DNA of 38,992 nucleotides from a virus (Duplodnaviria > Caudoviricetes), in IMG/VR virus record IMGVR_UViG_3300048598_000484, positions 1 to 38,992 of that record; one strand, written 5' to 3'. Position 1 is the first letter of the stretch. The number at the start of each line of letters is the position of its first letter. Shown piece by piece: positions 1 to 38,364 of the stretch. The position numbers and the translations under genes were made by a program. The notes beneath the pieces were generated by a model. It made no database searches and was not told where the DNA came from. It worked only from the letters and a program-made list of their open reading frames with translations.

Positions 1-1380
1 TCAACGAGTGTATTCGCTTTGTTTGACGATATTCTCCAACACCTCCGCCGCCTTCTCATCCGCCGTCCTGATCGCATGCGAGTAGATGTTCGCTGTTGTC
101 GAAGTTTGTGCATGCCCTGCTCGATAACTCACCGTCTTCAGCGGAATCCCTGATGCAAGCAAGAGCGTGATGTTCGTATGCCTCAAGGAGTGAATCGAAA
201 TCTGCGGCAAATCCGTACGCGAGATGAAATCGTGAAACCAACCGGTAATGCTGTCCGGGTGAACCGGTGTACCGTCATCCTGAGTAAAAATTCGGTCGCT
301 GTCGACCCACCGGTCCCCCATCGCAATGCGCTTCTTCCGCTGCCATTTTCGATGCTCTTTCAATAGTTCGAACGCCTGTTCTGGCAACTTAATTGTGCGC
401 ACAGAAGAATCGGTTTTCGTGCCTTTCGTGAAGATGCCCATATCCGGTAGATACTGCGATGTCCGGCAAACCGTGATCATGTTGTTCTTGAAGTCGATGT
501 CCTTCCATTCAAGTCCACATAATTCTCCGCGCCGTACACCGCTGAGCAGGAAGAATCGAATCATCACCTGATTCTGGTATGGTTCATTGTCCAGCAATCG
601 CAGAAGCGTCGCGGTCTGCTCTTCATCAAGATACTTCGCTTCTTTGCGCTCGAACTTGGGCGGTTTCACACGTCGTGAAGGATTGTCAGGAATCACCTGC
701 CAGAACACCGCTTGATTGAGAATTGACGAGATTAGCCGGTGATGGTGGTTGATCGTCTTCCCCGCCAGCTGATGCACCGGTTTTGTCGATTCAATGCCTT
801 CCTCGAAGGAAATTCCAAGTATGTCGCAGGCAGCCTGCGCAATGCGAACGTCAACACCCTGTCCCCGAATCAGGCGGTACATCGTATTCACATGGCACTC
901 CGCTTCATCCGCCAGTGCCTGTCGCGTCATGCCGGATTTTTGAAACATAGAAAGCAAGCGGGGCGTCGCCTTAAACGACACCCCGCTTTGATTTTTCGTA
1001 TTCTGTAGACTAGCGTAGAACGCCATCAGATGATGTGGTTGCAGCTTGTCCAGCCGGATATACCCGATCGCCGGGAGGATGCGTCTGAGCAGTTCCTCAT
1101 ATCGAACGAGCGTCTTGGGCGCAAGATTCGGCTCAGCGTAATCGCGTTTCCAACGCTCGACGAATTCTGCAAACGTCACATGCCCATCCAGCACCTGACC
1201 CGTGCGCACCCTGCGTTCGAACAGCACCGCTTGTGTGTTCAGCGCTTCCTTAATCTGCCGCTTGGTCATGCCGGGATCGGGTCTCCATGTCATGGTTTTG
1301 CGCTTTTGCCGTCCATCAAGGCCGTACCCCTCGCTGACCATGATCATGTAGCCACCGTTTCGTTCCAGTATGGTTGCCAT
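1..1380 (-). CDS. int: Tyrosine recombinase/integrase with an internal XRE-like HTH insertion
   Basis: GVRRGE, HSLRH, AGH and IYSH catalytic motifs; GGGAGG RBS. Confidence 0.95.
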   Translation of the reverse strand: MATILERNGGYMIMVSEGYGLDGRQKRKTMTWRPDPGMTKRQIKEALNTQAVLFERRVRTGQVLDGHVTFAEFVERWKRDYAEPNLAPKTLVRYEELLRRILPAIGYIRLDKLQPHHLMAFYASLQNTKNQSGVSFKATPRLLSMFQKSGMTRQALADEAECHVNTMYRLIRGQGVDVRIAQAACDILGISFEEGIESTKPVHQLAGKTINHHHRLISSILNQAVFWQVIPDNPSRRVKPPKFERKEAKYLDEEQTATLLRLLDNEPYQNQVMIRFFLLSGVRRGELCGLEWKDIDFKNNMITVCRTSQYLPDMGIFTKGTKTDSSVRTIKLPEQAFELLKEHRKWQRKKRIAMGDRWVDSDRIFTQDDGTPVHPDSITGWFHDFISRTDLPQISIHSLRHTNITLLLASGIPLKTVSYRAGHAQTSTTANIYSHAIRTADEKAAEVLENIVKQSEYTR

Positions 1381-25354: not shown

Positions 25355-25948
25355 ATGAAGTCCAATGACAAACTGGCTGTATTGTTAAAAGAGAACAAAG
25401 GGTTTTTGAAAACATCTGACGCAGTAGCGGCAGGTGTTTCAAGGACCGCGCTCGGCGATTTTGTACGGCAAAACAATCTAGAGCGTGTTGCTCATGGTTT
25501 ATATATGTCGCAAGACGCATGGACAGACGGTTTGTTTGTGATCCAAGTACGATATCCGGAAGCTGTGTTTTCTCACGAAACGGCTCTCTATCTTCTGCAC
25601 CTTGCTGATCGCGAACCCGATCCCTTTTCCATTACTGTCAAAGCCGGGACAAATTCTGTCGGTTTATTGCGGCAAGGAGTGAAGGTGTATAAGGTGAAGA
25701 AGGAGCTTTTCGATGAAGGCATCGTCGAGACGAATTCACCATCCGGTCATTTCGTCAGGACATACAATGCCGAGCGGACAATTTGTGACATGTTCCGAAG
25801 TCGGAATCGCATTGAGATTCAGGACTTGCAAGCAGCAATCAAAGAGTACGTTCGTTCAAAAGAGAAGAACATTCCAAAATTATTGCGATATGCGCGTGCA
25901 TTTTCTGTTGAACGGCAAGTCCAGCAATATTTGGAGGTACTATTGTAA
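25355..25948 (+). CDS. abiEi: Type IV toxin-antitoxin antitoxin, AbiEi family
   Basis: N-terminal wHTH (LERVAHGLY); FSHETALYL and ERTICD. Confidence 0.9.
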   Translation: MKSNDKLAVLLKENKGFLKTSDAVAAGVSRTALGDFVRQNNLERVAHGLYMSQDAWTDGLFVIQVRYPEAVFSHETALYLLHLADREPDPFSITVKAGTNSVGLLRQGVKVYKVKKELFDEGIVETNSPSGHFVRTYNAERTICDMFRSRNRIEIQDLQAAIKEYVRSKEKNIPKLLRYARAFSVERQVQQYLEVLL

Positions 25949-26787
25949 TGATCCACACTTCACGACAGCTCAAGGCACTTGTCCGTAACATTGCCAAGGG
26001 TGACAGCGCGAAAGCACAAATCATCATCCGTAACTATGTGACAGAGCGGTTTCTTGAACGGCTCTCACTCTCACAATATCGAAGCAACGTGATTCTAAAG
26101 GGTGGAACTCTGATCGCAGCCATGGTTGGTTTGGATAACCGCTCCACCATGGATGTAGACACCACGTTGAAAAAACTGCCGCTGAATGAAACGACCGTGC
26201 GAACTATCGTCGATGATATCATTGCAGTTCAGCTCGAGGACGGCATGTCATTCGAAATAAAAAACGTGTCTCAGATCATGGACGATGCGGATTACCCCGG
26301 CATTCGTCTCATGCTTGATACAACTCTTGAAAACATGCATACTCCACTGAAAATCGACTTTTCCGCTAACGATGTAATTACACCTCGTGAGATGCCGTTT
26401 GCATTCCGTCTCTCTTTTGAAGAACGAACTATTCCAGTACTAGCGTATAACTTGGAAACCATTTTATCCGAGAAACTCGAAACCCTGCTTTCCAGGGGCA
26501 CCGCCAATACTCGCATGCGTGACTTTTACGATATCCATGTCCTCACCAATACACCAACGCAGCGCATTGATAACACCACGCTGAAAAAAGCGTTCAAAGG
26601 AACATGCAATAAGCGAAGTTCTCAGATTCTTTTGCCTGATATGGATCTGATTCTACAGGAGATTGCCGAAAGCGCTTCTCTGGTCGCGCTTTGGAAAAGT
26701 TATCAACGCAAGTATCAATATGCCTCAAGCGTTTCTTGGAATGACGTGATTAAGTCCGTCCGTGCCTTAGCTGAAATCGTGAAGTGA
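25948..26787 (+). CDS. abiEii: Type IV toxin-antitoxin toxin, AbiEii nucleotidyltransferase
   Basis: LKGG, RSTMDVD, SEKLE, RMRDFYDI; TAATG coupling with abiEi. Confidence 0.92.
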   Translation: MIHTSRQLKALVRNIAKGDSAKAQIIIRNYVTERFLERLSLSQYRSNVILKGGTLIAAMVGLDNRSTMDVDTTLKKLPLNETTVRTIVDDIIAVQLEDGMSFEIKNVSQIMDDADYPGIRLMLDTTLENMHTPLKIDFSANDVITPREMPFAFRLSFEERTIPVLAYNLETILSEKLETLLSRGTANTRMRDFYDIHVLTNTPTQRIDNTTLKKAFKGTCNKRSSQILLPDMDLILQEIAESASLVALWKSYQRKYQYASSVSWNDVIKSVRALAEIVK

Positions 26788-26808: not shown

Positions 26809-27168
26809 TCATAAGCGCGTTGAACGATTTGAGCTACCAATCGTAATCCTGGAATGGCAGCTCTTACAAAGCGCCATGAGGTTGCCATCGTCATTCGTAC
26901 CACCGTTTGCCAGCGGTAGAAGATGATGCACTTCCTCGGCGGCAGTGAGTCTGCCTTCGCATTTGCACTGCTCACACAAAGGATGCAGCAATAAAAATCG
27001 CGCGCGAAGTTTCTTCCACGCGCGTCCGTATCGTTTGTTGGTATCCGGGTCTCGAAGGTATCGGTTGTACTGACGATCGATGGAAAATCTGTGCTCATCA
27101 CAGTACTGACCATCGGTCAGCCTCCCGCACCCAGGGTAGGAGCACGGACGCTTGGGTTTCTTTGGCAT
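26809..27168 (-). CDS. HNH endonuclease (packaging-associated)
   Basis: MPKKPKRPC..PGC; PLCEQC; EVHH..PL..GGT..NLMALCKSCHS. Confidence 0.93.
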   Translation of the reverse strand: MPKKPKRPCSYPGCGRLTDGQYCDEHRFSIDRQYNRYLRDPDTNKRYGRAWKKLRARFLLLHPLCEQCKCEGRLTAAEEVHHLLPLANGGTNDDGNLMALCKSCHSRITIGSSNRSTRL

Positions 27169-27184: not shown

Positions 27185-27232
27185 AAAGAAAAGAGCCTCC
27201 GCGTTTTCTTACCTGCGAAGGCTCTCTTCTTT
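27185..27232 (-). terminator. Terminator-like hairpin at the start of the packaging region
   Basis: Minus strand: AGAGCCTTCGC...GCGGAGGCTCT-TTTCTTT. Confidence 0.6.
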
Positions 27233-32283: not shown

Positions 32284-33732
32284 TTATTTGGTTTGAAACG
32301 GGTTCTTACCCGCCCTGTATTTGTCGATCAGAATTCTTGCCAGATCGGCTTTGTCTATTAGCGCCTGAAGCACTTTTTCATCCACAGTGCCAGCGGCGAC
32401 GAGGTAGAGATAGGTGCAGGGGTTTCGTTGACCGACGCGATGGATCCGCGCTTTCGCCTGTTCGAAGTTGGACATGCTGTAATCCAGAGAGTAGAAGACC
32501 ATCGTGTCGGCGGCCGTGAGCGTGATGCCCAGCCCGGCTGTCGCGATCTGGCCAACAAACACCGTTGTGTCTGGATCCGTTTGGAATCGCCGCACCTGTT
32601 CGTCACGATCCTTGAACTCACCGGAGATGATGGAATAGCCGATCACCTTTTTCTCAAGCATTCCCAGGATCGCATCGATCTCAGGCAGAAACCGCGCGAT
32701 AATCACGAGCTTTTTCCCATCCTCTGCAGCGCTGTCCACGATGTCCGACAATGCCTTGAGTTTGGCATCGCTCACCGATACGGGCCGGTCGGAATCGTCT
32801 TGACATAGGAATCCGCCGGTCAGTTGGGACAATCGCAGCAGGCGTGTCAGCACATTTGTTGCGGTCACCTCGCCCTCGCGGAGCTGAATCATGCTGTCGT
32901 GCACCATATCGAGATATAGGTGCTGTGCCTCCGGTTCCAGCAGGACCGTTCGGACGATTTCCGTCGTTTCCGGCAGGTCCAGGCACTCGGCTTTCGTTGC
33001 GCGGAATGCGATGCTGTGGATGCGGCGCGTGAGTTCCTTCGCCATGCGCTCTTTCAACACGGGAACGTGCAGTCCGTACCCGGTCATATCGAAATAGCGA
33101 TTACGGAAAGCATAGAAGCTGTTACCGAACACCGCCGGATTCAGGAATTTGTACGGGCTGAACACGTCGATGGCCTTGTTGGTGATGATCGTGCCCGTCA
33201 GCAGCATCCGATACCGTGCCTTCGCGCCGAGCCGGTGCATGCACTTGCTCGCCGCGATATTGTGAGTCTTGATCTTGTGCCCTTCGTCGCACACAATGAG
33301 ATCTGCGTTCCATGCGGCAAGCTCGTCTTCCAGCCGCCATGCGGATTCGAAGTTGATCACTCCAACGATCAATCCGTTTGTCGATATTTGTCGAAGATTC
33401 TCGGATTTTCTCGATCCGGTTCCATTGAGAACAGCAAGCGAATACGGATAGTCCGCGAATTTCTGAAATTCCTCCTGCCAGACACCCAGGATCGACAACG
33501 GGGCCACAATGAGCATCCTCTCAATCTTATGATCGAGAAACAGCCGACCTGCGACTGCTATGGTTGTCAGTGTTTTGCCGGTTCCCATTTCCATGAGAAG
33601 CGCTATACCGCGACTTGGCGGTGGGTTGCATCCTGTCAGGCCGAACGAGCGACAGGCAAATTCATATGCCCGTTGCTGATGACCATACGGATGCGCTTTA
33701 ACCGGCATTCGGTTCGTCATGTTTTGTTCCAT
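32284..33732 (-). CDS. SNF2-family (DEAD/DEAH-like) helicase
   Basis: MEMGTGKT, CDEGH, LTGT, GLGITLT, QAKARIHRVGQ. Confidence 0.93.
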   Translation of the reverse strand: MEQNMTNRMPVKAHPYGHQQRAYEFACRSFGLTGCNPPPSRGIALLMEMGTGKTLTTIAVAGRLFLDHKIERMLIVAPLSILGVWQEEFQKFADYPYSLAVLNGTGSRKSENLRQISTNGLIVGVINFESAWRLEDELAAWNADLIVCDEGHKIKTHNIAASKCMHRLGAKARYRMLLTGTIITNKAIDVFSPYKFLNPAVFGNSFYAFRNRYFDMTGYGLHVPVLKERMAKELTRRIHSIAFRATKAECLDLPETTEIVRTVLLEPEAQHLYLDMVHDSMIQLREGEVTATNVLTRLLRLSQLTGGFLCQDDSDRPVSVSDAKLKALSDIVDSAAEDGKKLVIIARFLPEIDAILGMLEKKVIGYSIISGEFKDRDEQVRRFQTDPDTTVFVGQIATAGLGITLTAADTMVFYSLDYSMSNFEQAKARIHRVGQRNPCTYLYLVAAGTVDEKVLQALIDKADLARILIDKYRAGKNPFQTK

Positions 33733-33776
33733 CAATTCCTCTCCAACATTCTTTTGTTTCAAAAAGAGTCGTAAGC

Positions 33777-33920
33777 GCGTCAGCCGGTCGTTCTCACCCA
33801 CAGGCTCTTCGCCTCCCCGCTTCCCGCCGGGCCGTGCTCTGGGACGTTATCCTCGACTGCACGGGAGTATCTTTCAGGTGTTGACTGACGCCCCGATATT
33901 CCGTTATCAATGTGCCGTGC
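33777..33920 (-). ncRNA. Candidate structured 5' leader RNA with a boxA-like element
   Basis: 9-bp closing stem GCGUCAGUC/GGCUGACGC, nested stems, and GCACAUUGAUAACGGAAUA just upstream. Confidence 0.45.
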
Positions 33921-33979
33921 TTGGCTTTCCTGTCGGCTAACCTTGCGGGCAGAGCATATAAAAAAAGCGCTTTTTTGAC

Positions 33980-33998
33980 CCGGAAATAAAATTTCCGG
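33980..33998. promoter_or_regulatory. Palindromic operator 1
   Basis: CCGGAAAT-AAA-ATTTCCGG. Confidence 0.8.
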
Positions 33999-34079
33999 TT
34001 TTTGGCCAAAAAACGGGCTTTTTGAGCTCATTTTCGGGGTCAAAAGGCCAAAAAATCGCATAAAGTCTGGATTTTTGAA

Positions 34080-34098
34080 CCGGAAATTTTATTTCCGG
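34080..34098. promoter_or_regulatory. Palindromic operator 2, exact reverse complement of operator 1
   Basis: CCGGAAAT-TTT-ATTTCCGG, starting 100 bp after operator 1. Confidence 0.8.
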
Positions 34099-34161
34099 TT
34101 TGAGCTCATATTTTCTTCAAAAATCACCGCTTTTTTGCATGAAATGCCAGTTAACATGTCC

Positions 34162-34196
34162 AAAAAGCAAAAAACGCCTCTTCTCGAGACGTTTTT
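34162..34196 (-). terminator. Intrinsic terminator
   Basis: Minus strand: AAAAACGTCTC-GAGAA-GAGGCGTTTTT-TGCTTTTT. Confidence 0.75.
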
Positions 34197-34227
34197 AATC
34201 ATGGAATGGGTATTCTATTCTCTTCGT

Positions 34228-34257
34228 AAAAAATAGCGGCCGGTTTGATCCGGCCGC
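34228..34257 (-). terminator. Intrinsic terminator directly after the ImmA/IrrE-like gene
   Basis: Minus strand: GCGGCCGG-ATCAAA-CCGGCCGC-TATTTTTT. Confidence 0.8.
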
Positions 34258-34273
34258 CATCTTGAAAGAAAAT

Positions 34274-36004
34274 TTACTCCTCTTTACCGATTGGTTTCAG
34301 TCCAAGTATGTTCAGATATTCATTGCACTCAAAAATTGAGTGCTGCGTCATAGACAGCAGAATCATTTGATACGCCACATGATCCGACGTCTGATTGAAT
34401 TGATACCCCGCTTTCTTTACCAGATCAAATGCAAAGATCGGATGCAGTTTGAGACCTACACACAATGCTACGACACGAGGAAGTGCAACCATCTGATCGT
34501 CAATACAATACGTTCGAATTCTACGATCCGTGATCAGGCTCGATTCCGCCAGTTGTTCCTGCGTTACCCCTTTGCGCCGCATGTGTGCTTCCAGCGTCGC
34601 ACCGAAAGACTGCGGTAAACTCTGCAGAACTCGGCTGACGTCCTGTGTGGTCTTTACAAGTTGTTGAATCTCGGGCGCAGCCTCAGCAAACTGAGGAACC
34701 TTGCCTCGGTCGCGAAGCATGCCATCAATCGCCCAGCGCGCTCTTTTCTGCACGTCAAATCCAATGCAACACTCCGCCGGGTGCGCTATTGCGTATGCGG
34801 TCAGATGAAGGTTGCCATCTTCCGTCCTGCTGATGTACCGATTGTTGCGCAAGCAAAAACGTTGGTCTACATATGCATATGCGCCGGTTGCCAAGGCATC
34901 CCGAAATTTGGAGTTCTGTGCGAATTCCTGCGTCGCATCCGGGTAGTTGATCTCAAATTGCGTCGGAGCGGTATATCCGAGCTCCGCATCCGGATACCCC
35001 AGCTCGATGAGCCGGATTCTCGCCAGTGAGCGAGATACTTCATAATGACAGGAGAGTTTTTCAACGATGCGGTCCATGCGGTATTTGGGACTCAGCTTCT
35101 CCATGCGCCGGATCCATTGGTCTGTCAGCATACGTGTCGACCACTCCGGCATGAGGATCCGCGGCGCAAGCGCGTTAGCCTGCCATTCCATGCGCTCCTG
35201 GGCCGTCCATTCACGGCTTCTACCCAGAGCGGATGATCTGCGACAGGCGATCGATGTCAATTGTGGATCATTCGCCTTCTGTAGCTGATATGCCTGCCGG
35301 TGCAACATCCAGTGAACGCACTCGTGTACTATTGTGTTGTTATATATTCGGGAATCGTATCGACTGTCCAATCTGTGGTTGACGAGTATCGTTCCGCGCG
35401 CAACATTCAGAATACGGTTCATACCGCCCGGCACATCCTGTACGGCTGTCGTGCTGTCTTCAAAGAAGATCTTCCCGAGCACCTCTCCGTCCGTGTCGAT
35501 GCAAGCATACTGCACGCTGAGTCCCAGCTTGCGCGCTATCGCCGAAGCCGGAACAGGGATCGCATTTCGGAGCGCGGCCGGATACAATTCTCTCAGTATT
35601 TTTGTTGCGGTGGCTTCCAGCTGCGCTTTGGGTAAATCGGGGATCAGGGTATCCGGTATGGCTTTCTCCGCCTCATAGGTTGGCCAATTCGGGCTAATAC
35701 ACCGAATCCAGAGCTGCGAAAAACCATCCCGCATATCTAAATAGCAGTCGACGACGTAAGGGCTTTTACTCTGGCACCCCGACTCTTTGATCGTGCAATC
35801 AAAATACACGTTCGCGTAGACGATATCCCTCTCCGTACCGGTTACGATCACATCCGTCAGAACGGCTCTGCTGAGTTCGACATTTCGCAACGCTGTGCGT
35901 CTCGCAAGTTCGGCATATAGTTGATCCGAGAACCTTGAGCGAATCCAGGCAGCGAATGAAACACCTCCTACTGCCTCGTTTCTGTTTGTACATGCAGCAT
36001 TCAT
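34274..36004 (-). CDS. ImmA/IrrE-family metallopeptidase fused to a C-terminal XRE-type HTH
   Basis: TIVHECVHW (HExxH), EWQANALAPRILMP, YEVSRSLARIRL; C-terminal MRRKGVTQEQLAESSLITDRRIR. Confidence 0.85.
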   Translation of the reverse strand: MNAACTNRNEAVGGVSFAAWIRSRFSDQLYAELARRTALRNVELSRAVLTDVIVTGTERDIVYANVYFDCTIKESGCQSKSPYVVDCYLDMRDGFSQLWIRCISPNWPTYEAEKAIPDTLIPDLPKAQLEATATKILRELYPAALRNAIPVPASAIARKLGLSVQYACIDTDGEVLGKIFFEDSTTAVQDVPGGMNRILNVARGTILVNHRLDSRYDSRIYNNTIVHECVHWMLHRQAYQLQKANDPQLTSIACRRSSALGRSREWTAQERMEWQANALAPRILMPEWSTRMLTDQWIRRMEKLSPKYRMDRIVEKLSCHYEVSRSLARIRLIELGYPDAELGYTAPTQFEINYPDATQEFAQNSKFRDALATGAYAYVDQRFCLRNNRYISRTEDGNLHLTAYAIAHPAECCIGFDVQKRARWAIDGMLRDRGKVPQFAEAAPEIQQLVKTTQDVSRVLQSLPQSFGATLEAHMRRKGVTQEQLAESSLITDRRIRTYCIDDQMVALPRVVALCVGLKLHPIFAFDLVKKAGYQFNQTSDHVAYQMILLSMTQHSIFECNEYLNILGLKPIGKEE

Positions 36005-36267: not shown

Positions 36268-37518
36268 TCACATTGCTTTAAAGTACCCGATCGGATGAAT
36301 GGTATGATCCTCTTTGGGATTAATATGCTTGAGTGTCGGGTCGAATTCCACGACGGCGCGATAGATGGCATAATGCCCGAATCGACGTCGGATATCGTCC
36401 ACAGCTCGCTCCAGTTGCTCCAGTTTCTCTCGCTCAGCCTCGTCCTCAAACAGTTTGAGCTGTTTGGGCGTCGTTGCCGGAATCAGGTCGCAGCCCCGGA
36501 TGCCTATGCTGCGCAGCGGATTCTGCCAGCGATAGCTCATGCGCAGCAGTTCCATTGCGGTATCACACAATTCGCTGGCTAGGCATGTCGGCTCATTCAG
36601 TTTCATTTGTTTCTGATACCAGAACAACCCATTATCTCGGACGCTGATTTGTACGGTCTTTGCCAGAAATCCATGATCGCGCATTCGTTCCGCGACGCTT
36701 TCCGCGAGCATGTAAAACACGATCTTTGCGTCGAGCTCATTCATTAAGTCGCGCGGGGTCGTGGTGCTGTTGCCAATCGACTTAATGATCGTCTCATCTC
36801 CAACCGCCATAACCGGTGAGTTATCCAGACCGTTGGCAAACCAATAGAGAATCATCCCCACCTTACCAAACCATGCCTGCAACAACTCAGGATCTGTATT
36901 CGCAAGCTGGCCGATGGTTTCAATGCCGTGGTTGTAGAGCTTCCGCGTTGTCGCTCGGCCTACATAAAGCAAATCAGACGCCGGCAGCGGCCAAACATTG
37001 TCGCGATAGTTATCCCGTGTCAGAACGCTGACAGCATCTGGTTTTTTCAGGTCGGATCCGAGTTTTGCGAACACCTTGTTGTAGGAAACGCCAACCGAGA
37101 CGGTGATACCGAGCTCGCGTTTCACCCGTTCCCGGATCTCCTCGGCAATCACCGTTGAGTTGCCAAAGAGGTGCACGCTACCCGAAACGTCCAACCATGC
37201 CTCATCCAAGCCGAATGGCTCAACCTGATCAGTGTAGCTGTTATAGATCTGACGAGCCAAGGCGGAGAAGCGGAGATAGCGGTCATAGTGCGGTTTTATG
37301 ATCACAAGTTGCGGGCATTTCTGCTTTGCCTGCCAGAGCGCTTCGCCGGTGGTCACGCCATATCTCTTCGCGATCTGGTTCTTCGCCAATATAATGCCGT
37401 GCCGCGCCTCCGCATCTCCGCCCACCGCGACCGGTTTATCTCTGATCGATGGATCATATAAGCACTCGATGCTGGCATAACAGGCGTTCATATCTACATG
37501 TAAAATCGATCTATCCAA
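36268..37518 (-). CDS. dinB: Y-family translesion DNA polymerase (DinB/UmuC type)
   Basis: ILHVDMNACYAS, GIILAKN, GLDEAWLD, AKLGSDLKKPD; C-terminal AVDDIRRRFG; TTG start after AGGAGG. Confidence 0.93.
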   Translation of the reverse strand: MDRSILHVDMNACYASIECLYDPSIRDKPVAVGGDAEARHGIILAKNQIAKRYGVTTGEALWQAKQKCPQLVIIKPHYDRYLRFSALARQIYNSYTDQVEPFGLDEAWLDVSGSVHLFGNSTVIAEEIRERVKRELGITVSVGVSYNKVFAKLGSDLKKPDAVSVLTRDNYRDNVWPLPASDLLYVGRATTRKLYNHGIETIGQLANTDPELLQAWFGKVGMILYWFANGLDNSPVMAVGDETIIKSIGNSTTTPRDLMNELDAKIVFYMLAESVAERMRDHGFLAKTVQISVRDNGLFWYQKQMKLNEPTCLASELCDTAMELLRMSYRWQNPLRSIGIRGCDLIPATTPKQLKLFEDEAEREKLEQLERAVDDIRRRFGHYAIYRAVVEFDPTLKHINPKEDHTIHPIGYFKAM

Positions 37519-37577
37519 CGGTTTCTCCTCCTTTCGGTACCGCTAGTATAATCTTTGTTTTTGAGAATGTATAGTCG

Positions 37578-37589
37578 GAACATTTGTAC
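37578..37589. promoter_or_regulatory. Near-consensus Gram-positive SOS (Cheo) box
   Basis: GAAC-ATTT-GTAC vs consensus GAAC-N4-GTTC, upstream of the polymerase. Confidence 0.5.
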
Positions 37590-37607
37590 TAATTTGAGAT
37601 ATTCTTC

Positions 37608-37636
37608 TTGCGTTCGGTATCCGCCCGTAGTACAAT
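37608..37636 (+). promoter_or_regulatory. Sigma-A promoter of the repressor operon
   Basis: TTGCGT-N17-TACAAT upstream of an AAGGAGGTG RBS. Confidence 0.7.
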
Positions 37637-37662
37637 CGACACACAAGGAGGTGCTGCATGAC

Positions 37663-38364
37663 ATGTACGAACACTTAGGAAGCCCCCTCGCCGCACTACG
37701 AAAAAGCTGTCAGTTATCTCAGGCGGAGGTCGCCGAGCTTTTGACGCAGATGGGCATTCCTGTTACGAACCGGGCAATCAGCCATTGGGAGCAGGAACGG
37801 GCTCAACCGTCCTCGACGCAATTCCTCGGCCTGTGTGCTGTCTACCGGGTTCGGGACGTATTATCCGTTTTCGGCGAGTACAAACTCCCCCTGCGTGACT
37901 TCGAATTGAACCGCGAAGGTCGTGCAAAGGTGGAAGAGTTCGCCGATATTCTTGTCGCAAGCGGCAGGTTTCGCGTTCAGGACAACGTCATTCCGTTTGT
38001 TCAGCGTTCCATGCCGGTATATGATCTACCTGCCTCTGCCGGTACAGGCGTATTTCTCGACAGCAGTGAATATGAGATGGTATCGGTCGGATCCGAAGTG
38101 CCGGTCAACGCCAACTTCGGCGTTCGAGTGTCCGGTGATAGCATGGAGCCGTCCTATCAGGATCAGCAGATTGTGTGGGTTCAGCAACAGCCAACACTGA
38201 TGGATGGAGACATTGGCATCTTCGTCCTCAATGGACAAGCGTACATTAAGCAATGGCAATCCTCGTCGAAGGGCACAAGCCTGGTCTCGTTGAACCCGGC
38301 ATACTCTCCAATCCCGATTCATGAGTCAGATGAGCTGCGCACGTTTGGGAAAGTATTATCCTGA
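37663..38364 (+). CDS. XRE-HTH plus S24 autopeptidase repressor (CI/HdiR-like)
   Basis: HTH (LSQAEVAE...AISHWE); ASAG cleavage site, GDSMEP Ser, YIKQ Lys. Confidence 0.92.
   Translation: MYEHLGSPLAALRKSCQLSQAEVAELLTQMGIPVTNRAISHWEQERAQPSSTQFLGLCAVYRVRDVLSVFGEYKLPLRDFELNREGRAKVEEFADILVASGRFRVQDNVIPFVQRSMPVYDLPASAGTGVFLDSSEYEMVSVGSEVPVNANFGVRVSGDSMEPSYQDQQIVWVQQQPTLMDGDIGIFVLNGQAYIKQWQSSSKGTSLVSLNPAYSPIPIHESDELRTFGKVLS

Follow-up and report, generated by a model that had tools for sequence, protein, structure and literature searches.

Antitermination can be carried out by RNA acting in cis. HK022 put and the Bacillus subtilis EAR element do so without a dedicated protein; put, which is phage-borne, consists of two stem-loops that contact RNA polymerase directly and act without a boxA. 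The nut sites of phage lambda follow another plan, a boxA plus hairpins. The canT RNA of the conjugative element Tn916 is cis-acting, orientation-specific and processive, and needs no other gene of the element (Wirachman and Grossman 2024, PMC11658703). Two alterations, numbered from orf8's stop codon, each leave less than 5% of reporter activity: canT(S3) at nt 283 (ATA) and canT(delta162), which removes nt 229–390 (PMC11658703). According to the accessible text of that paper, whose discussion names HK022 put and EAR, the authors could not tie structure to function, and neither "Rfam" nor "boxA" occurs in the main text (PMC11658703).

The window analysed here is the whole 38,992-nt stretch of a complete virus record, by gene content a temperate tailed phage. 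An initial annotation had drawn attention to a structured, non-coding leader RNA at the head of its long minus-strand gene run and proposed that it is an antiterminator or a switch. We recovered 55 distinct homologues of this leader in clostridial prophages, which bears out a conserved, structured RNA heading the run. The antiterminator idea gains support as an idea, for which sequence comparison now offers canT as a concrete model: the leader is probably a compact pemK-family RNA (RF02913) of a phage, acting in cis as a processive antiterminator.

Gene setting and predicted fold

The minus-strand genes extend from position 33732 to the left end of the window and comprise helicase, primase, VRR-NUC, DUF1492 activator, HNH, terminase, portal, capsid, tail, cell-wall hydrolase and integrase genes. 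The features that we refer to below are as follows.

32284..33732, minus strand: SNF2-family helicase gene, the first behind the leader, with its ATG at 33732 and a purine-rich ribosome site just 5′ of the ATG
33777..33785, minus strand: 3′ arm of P1, predicted fold
33786..33798, minus strand: P5, a small hairpin, predicted fold
33798..33876, minus strand: Rfam pemK match, corresponding by homology to the core of canT, including GAUACU at 33866–33871
33802..33814, minus strand: P4 hairpin, three conserved pairs and a 7-nt loop, from fold and alignment
33815..33831, minus strand: P3 hairpin, 3 bp + 1×1 loop + 2 bp, from fold and alignment
33842–33845 with 33849–33852, minus strand: P2a, a hairpin inside P2, predicted fold
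33859–33864 with 33832–33837, minus strand: P2, which covaries between subtypes
33883..33891, minus strand: 5′ arm of P1, the outer stem; subtype B has a different, self-consistent stem instead
33897..33915, minus strand: boxA-like word, a degenerate copy of the word that precedes 16S and 23S genes in the hosts, with three mismatches in the 11-letter core
33913..33956, minus strand: 5′ hairpin region, found only in a window-like subgroup (8/55 relatives); contains the upstream GCACGG; predicted local pairing
33980–34000 and 34078–34098, no strand assigned: pair of 19–21-bp palindromes, candidate operators, in an AT-rich stretch where the promoter is expected
34170..34260, minus strand: two terminator-like hairpins at the end of the upstream gene, between it and the leader
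27185..27225, minus strand: first strong terminator-like hairpin downstream, 6.5 kb away, between the DUF1492 activator and HNH genes; candidate read-through target

Because the leader lies between the upstream terminator-like hairpins and the helicase start, "head of the operon" is a fair label. The gene ended by those hairpins (34274–36004) encodes a 576-aa IrrE/ImmA-like peptidase with a helix-turn-helix (HTH), and takes the place of a sigma-70 region-4 gene found in other relatives. A sigma-70 promoter scan of 33600–34400 returned no sites. The halves of the two palindromes change together in relatives with the same upstream gene, and from this pattern they are likely operators of the 576-aa protein.

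Elsewhere in the window, an AbiEi/AbiEii type IV toxin-antitoxin pair (25355–26787, plus strand) runs against the operon direction between the HNH and small terminase genes. A Y-family polymerase (ImpB/UmuC) gene diverges from an HTH and S24 repressor gene at 36268–38364, forming a mutagenesis cassette, and the tyrosine integrase (1–1380, minus strand) has an internal match to a Cro/C1-type HTH at residues 141–194.

All motifs quoted by the initial annotation, both copies of GCACGG included, were found on the minus strand where it had placed them. The 221-nt stretch folds somewhat better than its shuffles (z = −2.05; 5/200 shuffles as good). The minimum-energy fold contains the proposed outer stem GCGUCAGUC/GGCUGACGC as well as CCGUGC/GCACGG and GGAU/GUCC, and in relatives 98–99% of the cells of these stems are paired. 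The CCCG/CGGG hairpin exists, but its register is better described as CCC/GGG, a G.G mismatch and GC/GC, which pairs in 56/56 sequences at four pairs and 53/56 at the fifth, whereas two pairs of the CCCG/CGGG register reach 51/56 and 54/56. The better register also removes two non-standard P3 pairs from the Rfam alignment. Of the proposed AGGC-GAAGA-GCCU hairpin the AGG/CCU stem stands, now with a loop of 7 nt, since only 2/15 window-like sequences have the inner C-G pair. The CACCU/GGGUG stem is missing from the full-length minimum-energy fold, which has a small GGU/ACC hairpin instead, and the CACCU word occurs in 2/15 window-like sequences. That the leader is non-coding is supported by three overlapping open reading frames without a Pfam match and by a 14-nt indel separating the two subtypes described below. 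We also considered an alternative register for the 5′ hairpin, which has a probability below 0.02 in the window, though it appears in the folds of 5/8 relatives.

The two copies of GCACGG (33915–33920 and 33832–33837) had been proposed to compete for the single CCGUGC; such competition would leave the box exposed or concealed. Although both copies are present and their pairings are mutually exclusive, a switch between them did not hold up: the alternative fold costs 8.5 kcal/mol in stability and has a probability of 7e-7 at full length and below 0.04 at all 12 transcript lengths tried. The duplicate is within chance, since a 6-mer present twice alongside a single complement turns up in 24% of 1000 dinucleotide shuffles. 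In 2/55 relatives the P2 arm has another possible partner, and that partner is changed in 6/8 relatives that share the 5′ region of the window. With energies, shuffles and relatives all against it, and two conserved, near-equal, exclusive folds not found, we reject a conformational switch or attenuator here and give competition between the GCACGG copies next to no credence.

The pemK match and two leader subtypes

The pemK RNA motif is said to be one of 224 motifs described by Weinberg et al. in 2017. We did not find pemK in the main text of that paper (PMC5737381). In an Rfam scan, pemK was the sole match in the whole window, covering model positions 1–61 of 61 with 34.8 bits, equal to the gathering score, and E 0.0089. 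The initial annotation had placed the RNA in no named Rfam family and held that a match to a described family would tell against calling it undescribed; with the pemK match, that reading fails. Among window-like relatives the score is borderline, at 34.3–38.1 bits, and in one run 2/8 other window-like loci were over the cut-off. A weak second match, to the dinG RNA motif (RF03082; 23.3 bits, E 0.14), does not reach its cut-off of 46.9; the GAUACU-stem-GGCCC start is common to dinG and the leader.

The pemK architecture, three stems around a junction that is closed after GAUACU, is seen in the predicted fold and the alignment. The leader has GAUACU, P2, P3 with its 1×1 loop and P4 with its 7-nt loop in model order. 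Unlike the model, it reads UGAAA rather than AUAAU at its 5′ letters, carries a small extra hairpin in the P2 loop, is enclosed in a subtype-specific P1, has P5 behind the core, and sits before an SNF2 helicase gene. A phage portal gene is present in 3 of another 27 viral records whose pemK RNAs score high (G012, G029, G033), which extends the occurrence of pemK RNAs in phage records beyond the leader family of the window.

To gather homologues of the leader, we scanned contigs from viruses, metagenomes and genomes for its pattern, which gave 8 + 42 + 50 loci. Sixty-nine matches had the family spacing, 62 of them distinct; leaving out one chance match (L268), two truncated loci (L199 and L250) and four with identical cores gave the final set of 55. 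A looser pattern scan of viral contigs returned 119 loci, nearly all chance, which are excluded from our counts, and blastn against phages and plasmids gave no match. Most of the named hosts are Christensenellaceae, Eubacteriales and Clostridiales bins, and one host chromosome (G001) holds four copies of the leader family.

The homologues fall into two subtypes. Subtype A is window-like (14/55). The commoner subtype B (41/55; for example L201:2433–2570 and 40 other loci) is without GAUACU, has another outer stem and matches no Rfam family: against RF02913, 0/12 loci reached the cut-off, 0/4 matched at E ≤ 1, and 0/4 contigs matched at E ≤ 0.01. One leader counted in B, L234:510–678 (minus strand), is a mosaic with a subtype B 5′ half and a subtype A 3′ half; its outer stem cannot form because the halves come from different subtypes.

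Covariation, a check that had been suggested for the leader, was found between subtypes at P2, where compensatory differences separate A from B and three pairs have changed on both sides (56 sequences, 31 cells; 0/500 shuffles). Inside either subtype it was not above shuffles, and the P2 signal traces almost wholly to the A/B split, about one event. Pairing itself is well kept: 96% of cells are paired in each subtype (A, 15 rows; B, 33 of 41 rows aligned), compared with 27–47% in slid controls. The core is near-invariant while flanks and upstream genes are swapped among relatives, a sigma-70 region-4 gene lying upstream in 5/6 tested relatives and the 576-aa protein gene in 6/55. Searching from the helicase side, we found the leader at 6/79 loci; where at least 400 nt of upstream DNA was available it was present at 6/66 and missing at 60/66, some of these loci being duplicates. 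Contigs from three of four metatranscriptome runs span leaders of related phages, but we draw nothing from them, since contigs reveal neither the strand nor the start or level of a transcript and could derive from DNA.

In most relatives (45/55) the words GAAGGGG, on the 5′ side, and CCCCUUC, on the 3′ side next to the ribosome site, could pair and close the whole leader. GAAGGGG lies about 20 nt before the box and CCCCUUC about 15 nt before the start codon (L202, L205, L229 and others), where the ribosome site is an alternative partner for CCCCUUC. Leaderless relatives have a similar word pair as a short local hairpin, as if the RNA had been inserted into a hairpin loop. As a candidate switch this pair is stronger than GCACGG, though the window lacks it. 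It also bears on the proposal that the folded leader acts after transcription, protecting the 5′ end of the mRNA or setting translation of the helicase, with the box as a passenger. Such a role would fit both the outer pairing and the constancy with which the leader stays with the helicase gene, which begins within 210 nt behind it in 48/55 homologues. However, the window and its eight closest relatives have no outer pairing, the proposal depends on putative transcription of the 5′ GAAGGGG word, and it leaves the box and the pemK overlap with the canT mutations unexplained. We regard it as unlikely.

The boxA-like word and downstream terminators

In B. subtilis, boxA-like words precede the 16S and 23S genes, and NusB binds rrn boxA-like RNA (PMC13753749). 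Across the family, the boxA-like element noticed in the leader corresponds to the word of the hosts' rRNA operons, in the window less closely: the box is within one mismatch of it in 39/55 homologues and within two in 52/55, with the window at three. In five leader-bearing host genomes, all of which have a NusB gene, GCACCTTGAAAACT lies 163–167 nt 5′ of 10/10 16S genes (one cut by a contig end). These genomes contain 34 exact matches to the 11-letter core, compared with four for a control word; 25 are at rRNA operons, three in the leader and six elsewhere, none of the six with a leader. By coordinates, the 25 comprise nine before 16S, eight before 23S and eight as the complement after 23S, two having been checked by sequence. 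Since the complement also follows 23S, part of the role of the rRNA word may lie in a processing stem. For the phage we set such a role aside, having found the box without a complement within 400 nt in all 55 leaders; the leader box, unlike that of the rRNA operons, is followed by a folded core.

The association of box and core was also seen at other pemK loci. In an independent set chosen by the pemK 5′ word, in which 47 of 89 distinct loci were classed by Rfam, the box (at most two mismatches) lies upstream of 22/27 above-cut-off pemK loci (12/17 clusters; two below-cut-off loci left out) and downstream of 3/27, compared with 0/18 upstream of non-members. At the 60 related helicase loci without a leader, the box was found before none. 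Box and folded core thus travel together.

If the leader is an antiterminator, the boxA-like word on the nascent RNA would load host NusB:S10, by analogy with the rRNA operons. As it is transcribed, the predicted branched core would fold and stay with RNA polymerase, and the polymerase would then resist terminators along the 33-kb minus-strand gene run.

Candidate targets are present. A terminator-like hairpin lies 6.5–8.4 kb downstream in 7/7 element-bearing phages examined. Phages without the leader also carry such hairpins, and density does not differ between seven phages with the leader and 14 without (2.7 and 2.0 per 10 kb, p = 0.11). As the DUF1492 gene suggests, an activator-dependent promoter may serve the late genes separately, in which case the need for read-through would be smaller. 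Within the HNH gene is a further terminator-like hairpin (26997–27025, minus strand), at the same place in 6/7 element-bearing phages, which may reflect only the coded peptide.

Comparison with canT and other antiterminators

In the Tn916-like element of pCF10, a pemK match of 55 bits lies between the orf8-like gene and xis. Its first three positions are nt 283–285 after the orf8 stop and read ATA, the S3 site, and nt 229–390, the canT(delta162) interval, span the match. This placement presupposes that the pCF10 element is identical to Tn916 in this stretch; the agreement of the ATA speaks for that. The window leader and canT both match RF02913 end to end, which makes the leader homologous to the region lost in canT(delta162). 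P2 is paired in canT and in subtypes A and B although its sequence differs in each, and AGUC follows it every time. Beyond the common core, canT and the leader each have a box upstream and stand at the head of a long mobile-element operon; Tn916 has orf7 upstream, and most leader relatives tested likewise have a sigma-70 region-4 gene there. The box in the canT region of pCF10 is at nt 124. The active 452-bp canT fragment (PMC11658703) begins at nt 126, already two letters past the start of the box core, so that any need of canT for boxA is hypothetical.

The differences are equally plain. The leader is in a phage and canT in a conjugative element. The leader measures about 140 nt from the box to the end of P1, compared with 341–452 nt for active canT fragments, and a 291-nt canT fragment is inactive (PMC11658703). 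It is without the 5′ domains of canT, having no 140-nt stretch between box and core, and without the long P2 insert. A covariance model built on the leader family did not detect canT. Where canT has its essential ATA, the window reads TGA, two of three letters as in the inactive S3 allele TGC; the S3 change has little effect in a 400-bp canT fragment (PMC11658703). As ATA is not kept, we do not file the window RNA as canT itself.

The window copy could instead be what is left of a canT-type RNA, weakened or no longer working, that moved with its gene module. The S3-like letters, three box mismatches and lost inserts would suit this, as would absence of the leader from most related helicase loci and terminators that are not in excess; set against it are the pairing kept in both subtypes, the near-invariant core amid exchanged flanks and upstream genes, and the 72 bits scored by equally compact natural pemK members (L338, L378). 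We think a relic improbable.

The boxA-plus-hairpins plan of lambda nut recalls a further alternative, in which the leader is a platform for a phage protein, as part of an N/nut-like or ConAn1/conAn2-like two-part system, and does not act through host factors alone. A precedent is pLS20, which uses protein plus RNA (PMC11658703). On the other side, canT works without any other element gene (PMC11658703), and upstream genes are swapped among relatives while the RNA is kept. A protein platform therefore seems to us very unlikely.

Against antitermination by the leader we count the borderline pemK score, the family model that misses canT, TGA at the S3 site, the length of about 140 nt, the degenerate box in the window, the leader missing at 60/66 helicase loci, the terminator density and covariation amounting to about one A/B event. 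With these weighed, a compact cis-acting pemK-family antiterminator is still the reading that we hold probable. Only tentatively do we go further, to a protein-free antiterminator of about 140 nt in clostridial temperate phages that uses the host machinery for rRNA antitermination through a copy of boxA and would be a stripped-down canT core; canT and the whole pemK family would then load Nus factors, and the family, through subtype B, would extend beyond the reach of Rfam. Among chiefly openly readable papers, including main-text passages of Weinberg 2017, we found none linking pemK, canT and boxA, or pemK and antitermination.

New at this locus are the phage setting, the compact size and the sibling subtype (41/55) missed by Rfam. 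Were the leader merely one more pemK copy, it would be ordinary. As a natural version of about 140 nt in two subtypes, it offers a small construct with built-in variants for dissecting the parts of such RNAs and their use of Nus factors. The likeness of the leader to HK022 put and EAR is one of analogy only; if the proposed activity is correct, the orphan Rfam motif pemK would acquire a function, and HK022 put would have a counterpart in a Gram-positive phage.
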